Source: an uncultured virus (IMG/VR IMGVR_UViG_3300022867_000010) (taxonomy: Duplodnaviria > Heunggongvirae > Uroviricota > Caudoviricetes). Taken from it: DNA of 20,000 nucleotides. Below, piece by piece: positions 380 through 20,000 of this stretch; within the stretch, counting starts at the first letter, position 1, and every line of letters starts with the position of its first letter. A program made the position numbers and the translations under genes. Location of the stretch: IMG/VR virus record IMGVR_UViG_3300022867_000010; one strand, written 5' to 3'. Below the pieces are notes generated by a model. It was not told the origin of the DNA. It did not search any database and saw only the letters and a program-made list of their open reading frames with translations.

Positions 380-736
380 CCATTATCTGAAGCAAATTTC
401 TATAGTTTTAATGTCCAACCAGATCTGGTTTTATAATTAGGCCTGTTTAAAATTCTGCTAATCTGCCATTCCGATAGATTTAAATCTGCTACCATCTTCG
501 CTCTAGTGCCAGAAAATGAGGCACCCGATATATTGATTAATGTGTATATCTCTTCTGCTCTGCGCGCTATATACGCGATTCTGGCCATTGACATCTTTTG
601 TCTGGTTTCCTCTGATGCTTTTTTACCTTTCGATGCTATTGACATATTGCGCTTGGCTTCCTCAGAATGTCTTTTACCAGTTCTCGTTATCGACATTTTC
701 CGTTTAGTTTCGTCTGACATATTTAACGCAGCAGTC

Positions 737-843
737 CTCATACGAGCTTTTGTTTCGTCTGACTTGGCGTGGTGTAAACGCGCTTTTGTTTCGTCGGACA
801 TATTTAACTTAGCAATTCTCATACGAGCTTTTGTTTCGTCTGA
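737..843. repeat. 26-bp direct repeat encoding duplicated NUMOD3 units
   Basis: ctcatacgagcttttgtttcgtctga at 737-762 and 818-843, with a partial copy between them. Confidence 0.85.
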
Positions 844-1208
844 TCGCTTTCTACCTGTCCTTGATAATGACAGCTTTCTTTTATGTTCCACGGACTGAGG
901 TGTGCCCAAGGTATTAAACCCCGATGCAGTTGCTTTAGATCTATTATAAAATAAAGGATTTCTTGATACATTATGATCATTATGAAGATCTATTTCATTC
1001 TGGGAAGCTTCGTCTCTCGTATCAAATATTGAAATGATGATCTTTTCGAAAGATAACATACCTTGTATTGATATGGACTCATCAAGATATTTTGAAGAAC
1101 CCATATATGGATCATCTTCAGGTAAACATTTACAAGATCTGACACCGATGTAATATCGACATCTATCTGTGGGATGCAAATTAGTTATTAGATAGGTGTA
1201 GTGATAGG

Positions 1209-1216
1209 TATAAATA
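1209..1216 (+). promoter_or_regulatory. T4-type late promoter TATAAATA for the gp2 operon
   Basis: Exact TATAAATA upstream of late gene gp2, embedded antisense in the first codons of the endonuclease gene. Confidence 0.7.
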
Positions 1217-1295
1217 GAATTATGCATTTCAATATCTCAGTTATTGTGATGATAGAATCGGAAGGTTCTTCAACCACCTTCCGATTCGTTTCTAT

Positions 1296-9975: not shown

Positions 9976-10533
9976 TTATGACACACCTTCTTTAAAGTCT
10001 ATGGCCATTTGTTTGGCATCTTCCATAGTTTTTGCTACCCATTCACCTCGCCCTAGATCTGATATACGATGCAAACAACCGCCAATAGTGTTATGAAGAC
10101 TTAAGTTTGGAGTAGTGTTCGTATACTCCCACTTGATATCGTAACATTTTTCGCCTTGCTCTTCAACGATGCCATCGCATCTGACGTTAATGTGGTATTC
10201 ATCCTTCCAAAAATCAATAGCGGCTTGTTTGTCGTCCTCTGGATTATTTGCTATATAATGACAATCACCTTTTACGCAAGTAGACCCAACTTTAAAGCCG
10301 TTCAGTGCACGATGACTCCAACCAAACCATTCTTTTTGTAGAGGACTATACCCAACACCATGTGTCAATTGTTCTGTGATTTCAAGCTTTGCAAGAATCT
10401 CAACCTGATCTTCCATACCAACGTGAGTAATATAAGACTCGTCAAAATTGCTAAAGTAGCAATCCATGTCTTCATCGCAAATATTATAGGGTTTGATATA
10501 CGCTACTTGTGCTAACCATTCTTTTGTATTCAT
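9976..10533 (-). CDS. Hypothetical phage protein
   Basis: 185-aa ORF with AGGA RBS; function not recognised. Confidence 0.75.
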   Translation of the reverse strand: MNTKEWLAQVAYIKPYNICDEDMDCYFSNFDESYITHVGMEDQVEILAKLEITEQLTHGVGYSPLQKEWFGWSHRALNGFKVGSTCVKGDCHYIANNPEDDKQAAIDFWKDEYHINVRCDGIVEEQGEKCYDIKWEYTNTTPNLSLHNTIGGCLHRISDLGRGEWVAKTMEDAKQMAIDFKEGVS

Positions 10534-15357: not shown

Positions 15358-15443
15358 TGGTGGTAGTGGAAGGATTCGAACCCTCAATGACTAGCATACC
15401 TGCGGGTTACAGCCGCGTACCCTTCCTAATGGGTGTCACTACC
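15358..15443 (-). tRNA. tRNA-Tyr(GUA)
   Basis: GGTAGTG/CACTACC, loop CTGTAAC, long variable region, A73, CCA. Confidence 0.9.
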
Positions 15444-15977
15444 TTTGTTTCTTTTCAATGTTCTAGTTGCATTGGTCACCGTTGCGGCACAACTAGAACT
15501 ACAATATTTGTTCTTTCGTTTTTTATAAGATATAGCATCATGACAATATTCACATATCTTAGGAGATTCTTTATATATAGCTTGAGTCTTATAATGTCGG
15601 GCATTAGCTTTTTCTGATGCCCCATTTTCATTAGCTATGCGCATTGCCTTTTGATTTTTAAGTTTTCTCAATTTCTCATTAGAGTTGATATAGTCCCATC
15701 CACCAGAACCACCTAATTTTAGGTTATAGGTATTAGATTCAGCAATGAAATCAAGATTAACAATTTCAGATTCCTTGTTAAACATTTCCTCTGGGTTGTC
15801 ATAAACGAATAAGATTTCTTTTGTGAATTTGTCTAATCCATGTTTGTCCTGAGCGTATTTTAAGTATTTTCCAGAACCCATATAATTGTCGTTCAAATTT
15901 TTGGTCTTATGTGTTCCAATATAGAACTTGCCATTGATTTGATTTGAAATCTTATAAACAGTGTATTTTATTTCCAT
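15426..15977 (-). mobile_element. Free-standing GIY-YIG (Seg-like) homing endonuclease inside the tRNA array
   Basis: [26 protein letters not shown]...E...YNLK.GG.GG; C-terminal CxxC...CSxxC. Confidence 0.9.
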
Positions 15978-16848: not shown

Positions 16849-17003
16849 TGGCATTCCCGATAGGACTCGAACCCTGAACTTGACTTTAGAAGAATCGTGT
16901 GATTTCCAGTTTTACCATACACGCATTATTTGTTATCATGTAATATACACGTTACCTTATATCGACTTATTGCAACGTGCCTATCCAATTAGACTACGGG
17001 AAC
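16849..17003 (-). tRNA. Composite or interrupted tRNA-Arg(UCU), 155 nt with two D arms
   Basis: 5' GTTCCCG (17003) pairs with CGGGAAT-G-CCA (16849); about 80 extra nt lie between the first D arm and a second D arm; loop CTTCTAA. Confidence 0.6.
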
Positions 17004-17047
17004 ATTAAATTGCACAGTAACATTGCTGTTGTTACTGTTTTAAAAAT

Positions 17048-17124
17048 TGGCTCCAAACCTAGGCTACGATCCTAGCACGCTTGCATTAACAGTGCAATGC
17101 CCCCACCTAGAGGGCCCGTTTGGA
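17048..17124 (-). tRNA. tRNA-Asn(GUU) with 6-bp D stem
   Basis: TCCAAAC/GTTTGGA, loop CTGTTAA, G73, CCA. Confidence 0.87.
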
Positions 17125-17200
17125 ATAAATTGGCTCAACCGTATTTTTTTATAAGGCAGCTGAGTTCCTCCTTAGATGATTTACAATTTTTTTTCTACGA

Positions 17201-17446
17201 TCAAGAGTTCGAACTCAAAGAAAGTTTATAAAAATTGTTGCTGCAGCACTGACATCTCAGTTGAATCGTAAGAATACTTTTTGATGGTGATCTGCAAACC
17301 ATATGCAGCGTTATTACCATTAAAAAGTAATCTTTGATTGTTTTCTTAAAATTTGACTTACCCTTTCGAGTATAATCTTTTTTCTTGTCACGCATTACAA
17401 CAGACTTGTTATAAGTACGAGCATGTTTTGCCACTGGATTTTTCAT
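17201..17446 (-). CDS. Small basic protein, ArfA-like (alternative ribosome rescue factor candidate)
   Basis: AGGAGG RBS before ATG 17446; MKNPVAKHARTYNKSVVMRDKKKDYTRKGK resembles the ArfA core ending SYxRKGKH. Confidence 0.55.
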   Translation of the reverse strand: MKNPVAKHARTYNKSVVMRDKKKDYTRKGKSNFKKTIKDYFLMVITLHMVCRSPSKSILTIQLRCQCCSNNFYKLSLSSNS

Positions 17447-17637
17447 CCCGTTCCTCCTATGAAAGATTAATAAAGGCATCTGATTGGCTGCCCAGCAACT
17501 GAGCACTCGCACCAATCATATCCTCGCGGTGATTCTATCATCAAATAGTTAGCGAATCACCGCTTTGTATATTCTAATTTATTGAAGATCATTCATCAGA
17601 GGAACACCCCGATGTATTTCTTATTTCTTATACATGT

Positions 17638-17666
17638 ATTATAACATGGTTTTTCGAACTTGTCAA
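17638..17666 (-). promoter_or_regulatory. Sigma70-type promoter reading into the ArfA-like ORF and the left tRNA block
   Basis: TTGACA-17-TATAAT, extended -10. Confidence 0.8.
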
Positions 17667-17674
17667 TCTTTTTT

Positions 17675-17729
17675 CTTAATTTTCTTTATAATTAATTGTT
17701 ATATCGTTATAATTATAAAGAAAATTAAG
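17675..17729. repeat. Perfect 20-bp inverted repeat with 15-nt spacer
   Basis: cttaattttctttataatta (17675-17694) and taattataaagaaaattaag (17710-17729). Confidence 0.9.
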
Positions 17730-17857
17730 GCCTGATTTGCAGGCCTTAACCATATCTTATGTCGTCTTCTTCTATATTTTTCTATTTTTCAACTAAAGGA
17801 ATTCTTAATTCTTGATTCTTGATCAGCATTTACAAATTCCCAATTTCCTATACATTC

Positions 17858-17886
17858 ATTATAACAGGATTTAGTACCTGTGTCAA
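17858..17886 (-). promoter_or_regulatory. Sigma70-type promoter
   Basis: TTGACA-17-TATAAT, extended -10. Confidence 0.8.
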
Positions 17887-17923
17887 CAACTAATTGCAAT
17901 ATTCTTATAATTAGATTCAGTAC

Positions 17924-18091
17924 TTATCGTAGTGAACTAATGATATCAGCGATGGAAGCGGGTTTAGCTTGACTGTACGTCTTTACAGCATATTCATAAT
18001 TATTATCAAGCATTTTTGCTACATCATTCTCATTGTTTCCCCATTTTAATAACAATTTAGTTACCTTGGATTTGAATTTATTCTGTATCAT
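17924..18091 (-). CDS. Hypothetical early protein (55 aa), not in the ORF track
   Basis: MIQNKFKSKVTKLLLKWGNN...ISSLR*, directly downstream of the promoter at 18117-18145. Confidence 0.65.
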   Translation of the reverse strand: MIQNKFKSKVTKLLLKWGNNENDVAKMLDNNYEYAVKTYSQAKPASIADIISSLR

Positions 18092-18116
18092 AATATTTCT
18101 CAATTTCTATACATGT

Positions 18117-18145
18117 ATTATACCATAGTCCCGGCAATATGTCAA
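18117..18145 (-). promoter_or_regulatory. Sigma70-type promoter
   Basis: TTGACA-17-TATAAT, extended -10. Confidence 0.8.
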
Positions 18146-18192
18146 CAACTAATTTCAGTTTAGTTAGAACTTATGGTTATATCGATATAATT

Positions 18193-18266
18193 TGGTTCTC
18201 AATGATGGTAACGATCCACCGTCGTTCGGTTATCAGCCGAATGCTCTACCTTTGAGCTAATCGAGA
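18193..18266 (-). tRNA. tRNA-Ile(GAU)
   Basis: Cloverleaf, loop CTGATAA, A73, CCA. Confidence 0.9.
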
Positions 18267-18291
18267 ATAATTTCTCATTTCCTATACATTT

Positions 18292-18320
18292 ATTATAACA
18301 GGATTTTGTGCCTATGTCAA
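18292..18320 (-). promoter_or_regulatory. Sigma70-type promoter upstream of tRNA-Ile
   Basis: TTGACA-17-TATAAT, extended -10. Confidence 0.8.
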
Positions 18321-18345
18321 CCTTTATTTTTAATTTATTCAGTCC

Positions 18346-18379
18346 AAAAAAAACCCCAATCTGTGAAGAGTTGGGGTTT
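18346..18379 (-). terminator. Intrinsic terminator (candidate attenuator)
   Basis: AAACCCCAA-C-TCT-TCAC-AGA-TTGGGG followed by T8. Confidence 0.88.
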
Positions 18380-18409
18380 GGTATTCTTGAATATGGTTTT
18401 TATATCAAG

Positions 18410-18520
18410 TTATACTTTCCCCAAGCCAATATCGGCCATGCTCGCCCAATTGCCGCGATCATTGATCGTCGGATATTGAATCGATATAAACTGTTGTCTT
18501 AGGGAAGTCATTTTGCTCAT
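18410..18520 (-). CDS. Putative leader peptide (36 aa), not in the ORF track
   Basis: MSKMTSLRQQFISIQYPTINDRGNWASMADIGLGKV*; its last codons form one strand of an antiterminator; no clear RBS. Confidence 0.55.
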   Translation of the reverse strand: MSKMTSLRQQFISIQYPTINDRGNWASMADIGLGKV

Positions 18521-18568
18521 TAATTTTGGTTATGTATTATATATACAAGTTTTGTGCTTAATCTAAAT

Positions 18569-18898
18569 TTATTTTAAACTAAATGATTCACCACATCCAC
18601 ATGCCTGTCCTGCCAGTGGATTGTTAAATGTCAAGCCAGACTCGAATAGTTTCTTAACGTAGTCAACTTCCATTCCATCGATAAACAATATAGATTTCTT
18701 ATCAACAAATATAGACACGCCGTCATGAGCATCCGTGAACTTGTAATCATATTCATCAGGCGTCTCCACGAATTCAACCAGATATTGATAACCACCACAA
18801 CCAGCACCTTCTACACCAAATCGAACTCCTATAGTCTCGATTCCACGGTTATCAATCTCCCATTTGATAAATTGTGATGCATCTTTGGTTAATGTCAA
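18569..18898 (-). CDS. iscA: A-type Fe-S cluster carrier protein (IscA/HesB family)
   Basis: LT..A...I...GVRFGV...GC.G..Y...VD.KS..F.DG..VDY......G..F.NP.....CGCGESF. Start set at TTG 18898 (GAGG RBS, 109 aa) instead of GTG 19012. Confidence 0.92.
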   Translation of the reverse strand: MTLTKDASQFIKWEIDNRGIETIGVRFGVEGAGCGGYQYLVEFVETPDEYDYKFTDAHDGVSIFVDKKSILFIDGMEVDYVKKLFESGLTFNNPLAGQACGCGESFSLK

Positions 18899-18954
18899 AC
18901 CCACAACCTCAAGTTTTTGTGCAGGTATATTGAAATTTATGTCTGGCTCGATAT

Positions 18955-19176
18955 TCACGATATCTCTGCTTGCTTTGCGGACTGCAGCATAGTAATGTGC
19001 TTTCTGATCCACCTCATAAACATAATGGCCCGATCTGAGGCCATTAATGAAGCGCCGCCCACATCAGCAATAGGTACTGGGAAATTAAAACCACAAGCAG
19101 TAGAGTACCACAATTCCCCTTCTCTGTAATATTGGAAGGTTACTTGCTTGTTCTTGACCATGTCTTTGATATTCAT
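18955..19176 (-). CDS. Hypothetical phage protein (73 aa)
   Basis: MNIKDMVK...V.F.YYR.GELWY....GF.FPVP..D.G.A......A..FMRWIRKH. The track's longer start runs through two tRNAs. Confidence 0.8.
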   Translation of the reverse strand: MNIKDMVKNKQVTFQYYREGELWYSTACGFNFPVPIADVGGASLMASDRAIMFMRWIRKHITMLQSAKQAEIS

Positions 19177-19201
19177 AATATTTCCTGTTTCCTGTTTAAA
19201 A

Positions 19202-19278
19202 TGGTACGTCGAGCGGGAGTCGAACCCGCAACATCTGGATTTTAAGTCCAGCGCCTCTGCCAATTGGACCACCGACGC
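19202..19278 (-). tRNA. tRNA-Leu(UAA), short variable loop
   Basis: Loop CTTAAAA, D loop CAATTGGCAGA, A73, CCA. Confidence 0.9.
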
Positions 19279-19284
19279 ATAATT

Positions 19285-19362
19285 TGGTACCACCACTCGG
19301 ATTCGAACCGAGACATTAACTACTTTTGAAACAGTCCCCTCTGCCAATTGGGGTATGGTGGT
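19285..19362 (-). tRNA. tRNA-Leu(CAA), short variable loop
   Basis: Loop TTCAAAA, CCA. Confidence 0.85.
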
Positions 19363-19389
19363 ATTATTCTAACCTAAGTCAGATTAATT

Positions 19390-19464
19390 TGGTGTCTCTA
19401 GGGGGAATCGAACCCCCTACTCTTGGGTGAAAGCCAAGTGATCTAACCGGTAATCCATAGAGAC
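19390..19464 (-). tRNA. tRNA-Glu(UUC)
   Basis: GTCTCTA/TAGAGAC, loop CTTTCAC, CCA. Confidence 0.9.
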
Positions 19465-19470
19465 GTAAAA

Positions 19471-19546
19471 TGGTGGGTCCACAGAGATTCGAACTCTGAT
19501 AACCGGATTAAAAGTCCGGGATAATTGCCCTTTATATTATGGACCC
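19471..19546 (-). tRNA. tRNA-Lys(UUU)
   Basis: GGGTCCA/TGGACCC, loop CTTTTAA, CCA. Confidence 0.9.
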
Positions 19547-19582
19547 AGGTCCGCTTTGTTATCGTGTAGCGTTCACGCATTT

Positions 19583-19665
19583 TGGTACGAGGAGAGGGAC
19601 TCGAACCCTCAAAGGCCTGGTTTCTAAAACCAGTAGATCTGCCAATTCTCATTAGCCACCCTCGC
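19583..19665 (-). tRNA. tRNA-Leu(UAG), enlarged D region
   Basis: Loop TTTAGAA, canonical T arm, CCA; about 6 extra nt between acceptor and D loop. Confidence 0.82.
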
Positions 19666-19682
19666 ATTAAATCCTCAACTTA

Positions 19683-19910
19683 TTAAGTTGTTTTTCTTTT
19701 TCTATATCGTAGACGGTTGCGGCAAGCGTAAGCAGTCCCGCGGTTATTATCAACTCCCATCATCAAATTAGTGATCTCATTAAATACAGCAACTGGCACC
19801 TCGCCATTATCCATAATATGACTATTGGCAAGTTTACCTTTACCCATCTTACGAAGATGTTGCATTTTGACCTTAATCATAACGGGCATTGTTTTCCATA
19901 TAACCATCAT
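19683..19910 (-). CDS. Hypothetical basic protein
   Basis: 75-aa ORF filling the gap between two tRNAs. Confidence 0.55.
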   Translation of the reverse strand: MMVIWKTMPVMIKVKMQHLRKMGKGKLANSHIMDNGEVPVAVFNEITNLMMGVDNNRGTAYACRNRLRYRKRKTT

Positions 19911-19924
19911 ACTATTCTCTTATT

Positions 19925-20000
19925 TGGTACATCTGACGGGGATCGAACCCGCATTTCCCTGATTGAAAGTCAAGTTGCCTATTCCAGTTAGCAGACAGAT
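19925..20000 (-). tRNA. tRNA-Glu(UUC), second copy, 5' end cut by the window edge
   Basis: Loop CTTTCAA, GCGGG-TTCGATC-CCCGT T arm, CCA. Confidence 0.8.

Follow-up and report, generated by a model that had tools for sequence, protein, structure and literature searches.

Do the tRNA genes of a phage stand behind plain terminators, or behind switches that respond to the state of translation? The question is raised by a 20,000-nucleotide (nt) stretch of DNA (the window) from an uncultured virus (IMG/VR record IMGVR_UViG_3300022867_000010), in which a short open reading frame (ORF) on the minus strand is followed by an intrinsic terminator and then by tRNA-Ile. A reading made from the sequence alone had proposed that this element, here called unit E, is a leader-peptide attenuator sensing a shortage of any tRNA. 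The tRNA arrays of phages are mostly viewed as a help with codon usage or as replacements for tRNAs that host defences cut. If real, a leader-peptide attenuator before tRNA genes would let decoding capacity feed back directly on the transcription of these genes.

The mutual exclusion of terminator and antiterminator in unit E is non-random, and within this genome a competing hairpin is confined to the terminators that precede tRNA genes. We estimate the probability that unit E is a functional terminator/antiterminator switch at about 0.6. That a ribosome reads this switch has somewhat less than an even chance.

Layout and folding of unit E

Genome-wide, 21 tRNA genes were called: 16 in one array (genome 48197-42038), four in a cluster (140013-139580) and one, tRNA-Trp, on its own. 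In the window, 15 tRNA genes lie on the minus strand between 13900 and 20000. Unit E divides the array of 16, with seven genes upstream and nine downstream; the sequence-only reading had put about 20 downstream. The parts of unit E and of its downstream side are given below in window positions.

18536..18566, minus strand: decayed copy of an early promoter (TTAGAT, 19-nt spacer, TATAAT), directly 3' of the stop codon of the IscA-like gene, as read from the sequence
18410..18520, minus strand: candidate leader ORF of 36 codons (MSKMTSLRQQFISIQYPTINDRGNWASMADIGLGKV), ATG start, TAA stop, 17 of the 20 amino acids
18498..18506, minus strand: region 1, UUCCCUAAG, codons 5-8, predicted to pair with region 2 in the minimum-free-energy (MFE) fold
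18417..18425, minus strand: region 2, CUUGGGGAA, end of the ORF, predicted by folding to pair with region 1 or with the terminator 5' arm
18371..18424, minus strand: predicted antiterminator hairpin (UUGGGG/CCCCAA, GUAU/AUAC, CUUGA/UCAAG), -13.8 kcal/mol
18346..18379, minus strand: intrinsic terminator predicted by folding, stem AAACCCCAA.UCU/AGAUUGGGGUUU followed by U8
18292..18320, minus strand: consensus early promoter TTGACA-17-TATAAT with TG, 12 of 12 matches, 25 nt past the U-tract
18193..18266, minus strand: tRNA-Ile(GAT), first downstream gene, from the tRNA calls

The ORF, its range of amino acids and the terminator behind it were all present as first described. The stop codon of the IscA-like gene (18571-18569) and the start of the ORF are 48 nt apart. 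Its own stop codon (18412-18410) sits within the antiterminator hairpin, UUGGGG being 6 nt ahead of it, and the first base of the terminator stem (AAACCCCAA..UUGGGGUUU, 18379-18351; U8 at 18353-18346) follows 30 nt past that stop. By itself the terminator hairpin was calculated at -12.7 to -13.3 kcal/mol; it was missed by a simple scan because of a bulged base. The decayed promoter copy was not called by the promoter scan, and its flank and spacer resemble those of the promoter at 18320-18292 and of the promoter ahead of unit A (see below). The core of unit E has a G+C content of 0.44 vs 0.36 for the phage. When contigs of four DNA runs over 17000-19100 were compared, zero variants were found within unit E where it was covered.

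When the 196-nt stretch was folded in full, an energy of -53.1 kcal/mol was obtained (z -4.4), and 0 of 200 shuffles were as good. In this full-length transcript the MFE structure combines the helix of regions 1 and 2 with the terminator. That helix, UUCCCUAAG/CUUGGGGAA (18506-18498 with 18425-17), had not been mentioned by the sequence-only reading. It closes the base of a large hairpin (18510-18415, -31.6 kcal/mol), and the layout is therefore trp-like (1:2, 2:3, 3:4), which bears out the trpL/hisL-type geometry proposed for the locus. In the nascent RNA without the terminator 3' arm, the MFE structure is the 2:3 antiterminator and the pairing probability of the arm is 0.70-0.98. The alternative hairpin first drawn at 18424-18371 was recovered in its UUGGGG/CCCCAA, GUAU/AUAC and CUUGA/UCAAG helices; its TAT/ATA helix lies outside the MFE fold. 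Similarly, the proposed further upstream structure exists, with the inner CGAUC/GAUCG hairpin in the MFE structure and the outer CAATATC/GATATTG helix replaced by UUCAAU/AUUGGG. With a ribosome-sized block over the stop codon, the terminator still folds.

To compare terminators, the competitor gain was defined as the ensemble free energy gained when the terminator 5' arm may pair with the 100 nt upstream, in RNA without the 3' arm, and dinucleotide shuffles of the upstream sequence were used as the null. The gain of unit E was -9.0 kcal/mol against a shuffle mean of -2.5 kcal/mol, and it was matched by 4/500, 1/500 and 0/150 shuffles. The claim that the two folds exclude each other through the CCCCAA strand was therefore confirmed, with a gain beyond that of shuffles. 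By a cruder measure (mean arm pairing probability) unit E ranked merely 9th of 25 terminators, and its two states are apart in energy (-53.1 kcal/mol for the terminator vs -37.0 kcal/mol). According to these folding models unit E is a real bistable terminator, and it is probably an attenuator.

Terminators ahead of tRNA genes in this genome and its relatives

The genome contains 25 clean terminators, that is, hairpins of -8 kcal/mol or better with a tail of at least six T. The three with the highest competitor gain are at genome positions 48249 (unit A), 46479 (unit E, rank 2) and 140089 (unit B). After normalisation by shuffles, units A, E and B had z values of -4.4, -3.9 and -7.2, respectively, each with 0/150 shuffles as good. 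Among the other 22 terminators, one reached 3/150 (z -2.5) and the remainder ranged from z -1.3 to +2.2. Units A, E and B are exactly the terminators located at most 90 nt upstream of a same-strand tRNA gene (27, 85 and 47 nt, respectively). The competing hairpin is thus found at 3/3 of the tRNA-preceding terminators and at no more than 1/22 of the others. The two additional units are located as follows.

G000:C1:48424-48197 (window-equivalent 20324-20097; L033:198-425), minus strand: unit A, at the head of the 16-gene tRNA array, just beyond the window
G000:C1:140196-140013 (L034:714-897), minus strand: unit B, at the head of the second tRNA cluster

All three units have a short ATG ORF with its stop codon inside the competing hairpin; the partner strand of the terminator 5' arm is formed by the last codons of the ORF. 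In unit A a consensus early promoter precedes a 24-codon ORF with many Leu, Lys and Glu codons; the terminator (window-equivalent 20149) comes 34 nt later and tRNA-His another 18-27 nt on, and a TATAAATA motif is found 5 nt ahead of the ATG. Unit B consists of a 22-codon ORF with three Asn and three Gln codons, 38 nt, the terminator, 40-47 nt and tRNA-Asn, followed by tRNA genes for Gln, Met and Ser; its antiterminator is a perfect 8-bp helix (GUGGAGGU/ACCUCCAC). Zero promoters lie between terminator and tRNA in units A and B. The predicted states of unit A are close (-29.0 kcal/mol for the terminator vs -25.7 kcal/mol, with an overall MFE of -30.2 kcal/mol that is antiterminator-like), and those of unit B lie further apart, at -33.0 kcal/mol (terminator) vs -25.6 kcal/mol. 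Unit A is a clearer attenuator candidate than unit E, which is the weakest member among the units. An ATG ORF of at least 20 codons ending 20-45 nt ahead of the arm was found in 100/2000 shuffles of unit A and 92/2000 shuffles of unit B, and at 32/398 random genome positions.

Judging from the Pfam matches (gp32, gp59, T4 baseplate protein, gp19, RtcB, IscA-type Fe-S protein and GIY-YIG endonucleases) and from a gp32 homologue with at most 60 % identity to any GenBank phage, the source genome is a T4-type myovirus without close isolates. The window corresponds to G000:C1:28101-48100 of the 198,785-bp virus record, in which direct terminal repeats are present. The lineage is thinly sampled. A metagenome scan with an alignment of the IscA-like protein gave 75 loci, four of them already known close loci and the others at most 49 % identical. 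The nearest diverged relatives are L003 and L004 (IscA-like protein 77 % identical).

In L003/L004 the unit A homologue sits directly ahead of the IscA-like gene. The 24-codon frame, start and stop are kept with 20 of 75 nt changed and zero indels, vs several indels in the flanks; the probability that the frame survives under random substitution is 0.046. The terminator stem is unchanged, the inner stem carries a U-A to U-G change, and the upper hairpin has been retained with a loop deletion of 13 nt. Judged by eye, the partner strand of the arm has moved in register from GCGGG/CCCGC to GGGUU/AACCC; all helix comparisons of unit A across relatives were made by eye, with two distinct sequences in the alignment (A2).

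A third lineage, found by motif scan, is represented by G006 (a 49-kb contig with 23 tRNAs) and its near-identical twin L398.

G006:C1 about 43250-42900 (L179 160-430), reverse strand in L179: G006 unit, with a homologous terminator 20 nt ahead of tRNA-His

The order in this unit is promoter, AGGA Shine-Dalgarno, a 35-codon ORF unrelated to the others, 26 nt, terminator, 20 nt and tRNA-His. Its 10-bp antiterminator gives a gain of -13.7 kcal/mol (0/300 shuffles), and the stop codon is in the apical part of the hairpin. When the G006 unit was compared with GenBank phages by blastn, no match was found. By these sequence comparisons, unit A is conserved in two lineages besides its own. With about 150-190 nt each, the units are small, and three in one genome plus two further lineages provide natural variants to compare.

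Other searches added no member. The flanking proteins of units A and B led solely to unrelated contexts or identical copies. When 109 terminators were scored in 24 loci with RtcB relatives, two were near tRNAs and both were tRNA T-arms. A generic stem scan (AACCCGC..GCGGGTTTTTTT) gave a tRNA within 300 nt for 1/82 among the matches listed, and a scan with a unit E-specific motif gave nine matches, of which solely the own copy was related. No shared sequence motif was seen among the antiterminators of the units. A motif past the U-tract common to the units, TG(G/T)..GAATA, was given no weight because many unrelated terminators carry it behind them. At the tRNA cluster heads checked in phage T4, in L009 and in E. 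coli (pheV and pheU), no such unit was found and the promoters abut the tRNA. A Phe-rich leader of the E. coli tRNA-Phe genes was considered and dropped, as a promoter abuts both pheV and pheU in MG1655.

Leader codons, readers of the switch and rival explanations

The codons of the leader ORFs were compared with the tRNAs encoded up to the next clean terminator behind each unit. In unit A, 13/23 codons are read by tRNAs of its own block (His, Glu, Leu x3, Lys; background 0.21, P 2e-4), and 6/6 downstream specificities are present (P 0.015). In the G006 leader, 19/34 codons are read by its own block (background 0.39, P 0.03), and 11/11 specificities including Trp, Cys and His are present (P 0.002; 0/265 spurious ORFs of similar length). 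The unit B leader has 6/21 such codons (P 0.06). All 9/9 downstream specificities are present in the unit E leader (P 0.03; 2/265 spurious ORFs). Swapped pairings of leaders and tRNA sets showed no enrichment. These numbers suggest that leader codons match the downstream tRNAs in unit A and G006.

The proposed switch would work as follows. Unit E would be a two-state intrinsic terminator placed between the first tRNA block with the IscA-like gene and the remaining tRNA array. In RNA arriving from upstream, region 2 would fold either onto region 1 or onto the CCCCAA strand of the terminator, and in the latter case the terminator could not form. The most likely reader of the switch would be a ribosome on the 36-codon ORF. 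A ribosome at the stop codon would cover region 2, and transcription would end at U8; one held on the early codons would cover region 1 and free region 2, so that the antiterminator would form and RNA polymerase would continue into the tRNA genes. Unit E could be seen as an attenuator of the unit A type, acting now on transcripts that come in from the IscA-like gene and the first tRNA block. In this scheme we infer that the ORF is translated and that the switch responds to the supply of tRNAs; any change in tRNA levels is likewise inferred, and ribosome reading of unit E is plausible. Since the same design is found ahead of both tRNA clusters, it may be a sensor tuning tRNA transcription to the state of translation.

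A wider version, which we regard as tentative and doubtful at present, is a phage tRNA-supply homeostat in which each tRNA block stands behind a leader ORF that samples the codons of the encoded tRNAs. If any tRNA ran short, the ribosome would lag on the leader, the antiterminator would form and the block would be transcribed; good supply would lead to termination. The shortage could come from a host pool unfit for the codon usage of the phage, or from a host anticodon nuclease cutting tRNAs. Unit E would then be a second gate, before nine tRNA genes, the ArfA-like gene and, further on, RtcB. The effect of unit E on the genes behind it would be limited, because they have early promoters of their own. 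The reach to about 20 tRNAs and rtcB claimed by the sequence-only reading was overstated, as four consensus promoters are found in the first 700 bases (18320-17638) and a further one precedes rtcB. With a consensus promoter just behind unit E, read-through could matter mainly when the early promoters are off.

Several results weigh against a ribosome-read switch in unit E. The perfect promoter at 18320-18292 lies between terminator and tRNA-Ile, and tRNA-Ile is therefore independent of read-through. ORF36 (the 36-codon ORF) has no Shine-Dalgarno: its duplex energy is +1.8 kcal/mol (second ATG -1.9 kcal/mol) vs a gene median of -3.8 kcal/mol, and 1.2 % of 163 genes are equally weak or weaker. 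The lack of a clear ribosome binding site and the separate sigma70 promoters downstream had both been given as caveats from the start, and both held. The Shine-Dalgarno sequences of units A and B are also weak. The codon adaptation index (CAI) of ORF36 is 0.513, below all 163 long genes (minimum 0.553), and its G+C content at third codon positions is 0.51 vs 0.28. Its codons are not enriched for the downstream tRNAs (15/35, P 0.26; Ile 4/35, P 0.24), and the unit B leader holds just 2/4 downstream specificities. The codon statistics were devised after the data had been seen and are therefore suggestive, no more. In addition, the placement of the unit E ORF alone is not rare (243/2000 shuffles), an array-internal terminator with a promoter behind it (17751-17723) has no competitor (gain -2.7 kcal/mol), and, when terminators are defined permissively (227 candidates, for the most part weak hairpins within genes), the three units rank no higher than the top eighth.

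The comparison with relatives points in the same direction. Beyond identical copies, no unit E homologue was found by blastn against GenBank phages, by blastn and nhmmer of 32 loci or in the records L002-L004. Unit E is missing in L003/L004, where the IscA-like gene runs directly into the homologue of promoter 17666, the ArfA-like gene and tRNA-Asn; because the gene adjoins that promoter homologue, the stretch 18569-17678 is an indel. For the unit E copy, therefore, ORF and pairing are absent from relatives, a result that the sequence-only reading had itself named as speaking against it, and what is kept in two lineages is the paralogous unit A. Unit E is also missing in L009 (RtcB 75 % identical), where the promoter abuts the first tRNA. 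As for unit A, the codon changes in its 24-codon ORF are 12 nonsynonymous vs 2 synonymous, which show no selection on the peptide and no conservation of it; its competitor is weak in L004 (31/500 shuffles) and precedes the IscA-like gene there, not tRNAs.

Much of this would suit a simple boundary between cassettes in a hyperplastic region of the T4 type, in which the terminator of the IscA-like unit is followed by the next early promoter, the ORF is untranslated and the competing hairpin is a fixed leak or was inherited from a duplicated module of the unit A type with a decayed promoter. Terminator, AT-rich stretch and consensus promoter lie within 90 nt, and 11 perfect promoters of the same type (TTGACA-17-TATAAT) are on the minus strand of the window. 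Composites of this kind, with a stem-loop acting as terminator or attenuator, are described in the accessible text of PMC2839356 as promoter-early stem-loops (PeSLs). The 18569-17678 indel is bounded by such modules, the sequence ahead of the ORF resembles a decayed promoter of the same family, and the ORF lacks a Shine-Dalgarno and has atypical codons. A fixed leak leaves unexplained why a short ATG ORF ends in the competing hairpin in 4/4 independent units (chances 0.12, 0.05, 0.046 and 0.11) and why competitors are found solely at tRNA-preceding terminators; the other terminator/promoter junction of the array (17751-17666) has no competitor. We consider a plain boundary possible, at well under even odds. 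The switch could also be real without a ribosome as its reader: an RNA-binding protein of phage or host, for example, or a tRNA that binds the leader might set it, by analogy with protein-dependent or T-box antitermination. In favour of this, the bistable structure is supported while the signs of translation are weak in the units of this genome. The T-box or another known leader family was not detected, the antiterminators lack a conserved shared motif and the ORFs would be a coincidence, which makes this an outside chance.

A structured non-coding RNA, or a 3' untranslated region of the IscA-like mRNA acting in stability, processing (e.g. by RNase III or RNase E) or in trans, would account for the strong fold (z -4.4), for the G+C content of the core and for an ORF codon usage unlike that of genes; the T4 annotation shows rnaC and rnaD beside tRNA genes in a comparable position. 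Against it, Rfam gave no match for the element at E up to 1, and a strong promoter belonging to the element itself was not found. The element also lacks conservation, and the reading leaves unexplained why the terminator 5' arm has a partner. We rate such an RNA as unlikely, marginally ahead of a non-ribosome factor. Least probable of all, by a clear distance, is that ORF36 is an ordinary small protein gene with incidental hairpins. It is open, ATG-started and located between a gene and a terminator, and against this stand the missing Shine-Dalgarno, a CAI under that of every long gene, the lack of a homologue and its absence in relatives. A tblastn search with the ORF36 peptide against phages gave one record at E 2. 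An exhaustive search gave five matches at E <=0.001, which were rejected as homologues because the three inspected were long, internally repetitive proteins matched in 3-5 stretches.

Neighbouring features and likeness to known systems

Several features around unit E were recorded. Within the array, a consensus promoter, a 15-codon ORF (MLIKNQELRIPLVEK) and a strong terminator (17886-17723, minus strand) form a transcription unit of ~130 nt without a long gene, which could be a small RNA. The ArfA-like gene (17201-17515, minus strand) matches Pfam DUF7230 (E 1.9e-10) and not any family named ArfA; its start is probably the ATG giving MKNPVAKHARTYNK, matching L003/L004, where GGAG sits ahead. 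Behind tRNA-Leu lies a 73-codon ORF (18955-19175, minus strand) whose ribosome binding site is good and which overlaps the GTG start listed for the IscA-like ORF; in relatives the IscA-like protein starts at residue 19. A terminator-like hairpin inside the 73-codon ORF (19046-19023) is probably no terminator. The tRNA-Leu(TAG) called by ARAGORN (19583-19652, minus strand) has 70 nt and its anticodon at position 27; Rfam scores 34 bits over 19586-19665 and the 5' end is uncertain. In contigs of two salt-lake DNA runs, tRNA-Ile carries 18205 A>G, 18230 T>C and GA inserted after 18231, or 18224 G>T and 18226 T>G. The lone tRNA-Trp belongs to a plain unit of promoter, gene, tRNA and terminator. 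GIY-YIG/NUMOD3 homing-endonuclease-like genes are found at 15426-15977 and 400-1227 (minus strand), one of them within the tRNA array, as with segB in T4. The protein encoded at 9976-10533 (minus strand) matches Pfam Tad6, a type I Thoeris inhibitor (E 1.3e-31).

Leader-peptide attenuators (trpL, hisL, leuL, pheL, thrL, pheM) are textbook examples of transcription control by a translating ribosome. Like the trpL-type attenuators of amino-acid operons and pheST, unit E has a short ORF and, after it, a terminator with a 5' strand for which a segment at the ORF end is an alternative partner, a further upstream segment that sequesters this segment (1:2, 2:3, 3:4) and a stop codon placed so that a terminating ribosome would cover segment 2. 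Unlike them, it has phage tRNA genes behind it and not biosynthetic or synthetase genes, it lacks a run of one codon and a Shine-Dalgarno, and a strong promoter lies between the terminator and the first gene. The mechanism considered here follows the description of leader-peptide attenuation given in the introduction of PMC3082878. In the full-text literature searched, which includes few subscription journals and does not extend to the older work on T4 tRNA transcription, no account of tRNA genes or phage tRNA arrays under the control of a leader-peptide attenuator was found.

Together with the promoter 25 nt behind it, unit E is a PeSL-like terminator/promoter module. In T4-type phages the PeSL combines a stem-loop terminator or attenuator with an AT-rich stretch and a sigma-70 early promoter, according to the accessible parts of PMC2839356 and PMC4122927. 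Unit E has the same components in a T4-type phage, its stem-loop being ~30 nt upstream of the -35 box, and such modules are repeated through the variable region and at indel boundaries between relatives (18569-17678 vs L003/L004). A competing upstream hairpin, a short ORF ending inside it and a link to tRNA set it apart from the PeSL as described in those parts of the two papers; in the accessible main text of PMC2839356 the word tRNA has 0 occurrences.

T-box leaders are also terminator/antiterminator switches tied to tRNA status. Unlike unit E, they bind uncharged tRNA directly, carry a conserved T-box sequence and stand before synthetase or amino-acid genes. When 17000-20000, L033 and L034 were searched at E up to 1, no Rfam leader family, the T-box included, was found beyond tRNAs and chance matches. 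Some antibiotic-resistance genes have leaders with ribosome-stalling attenuators that sense general translation inhibition, and these respond to drug-bound ribosomes at defined peptide motifs. The idea for unit E is similar, in that any slowing of the ribosome on the short leader ORF, and not the shortage of one amino acid, would flip the terminator and antiterminator.

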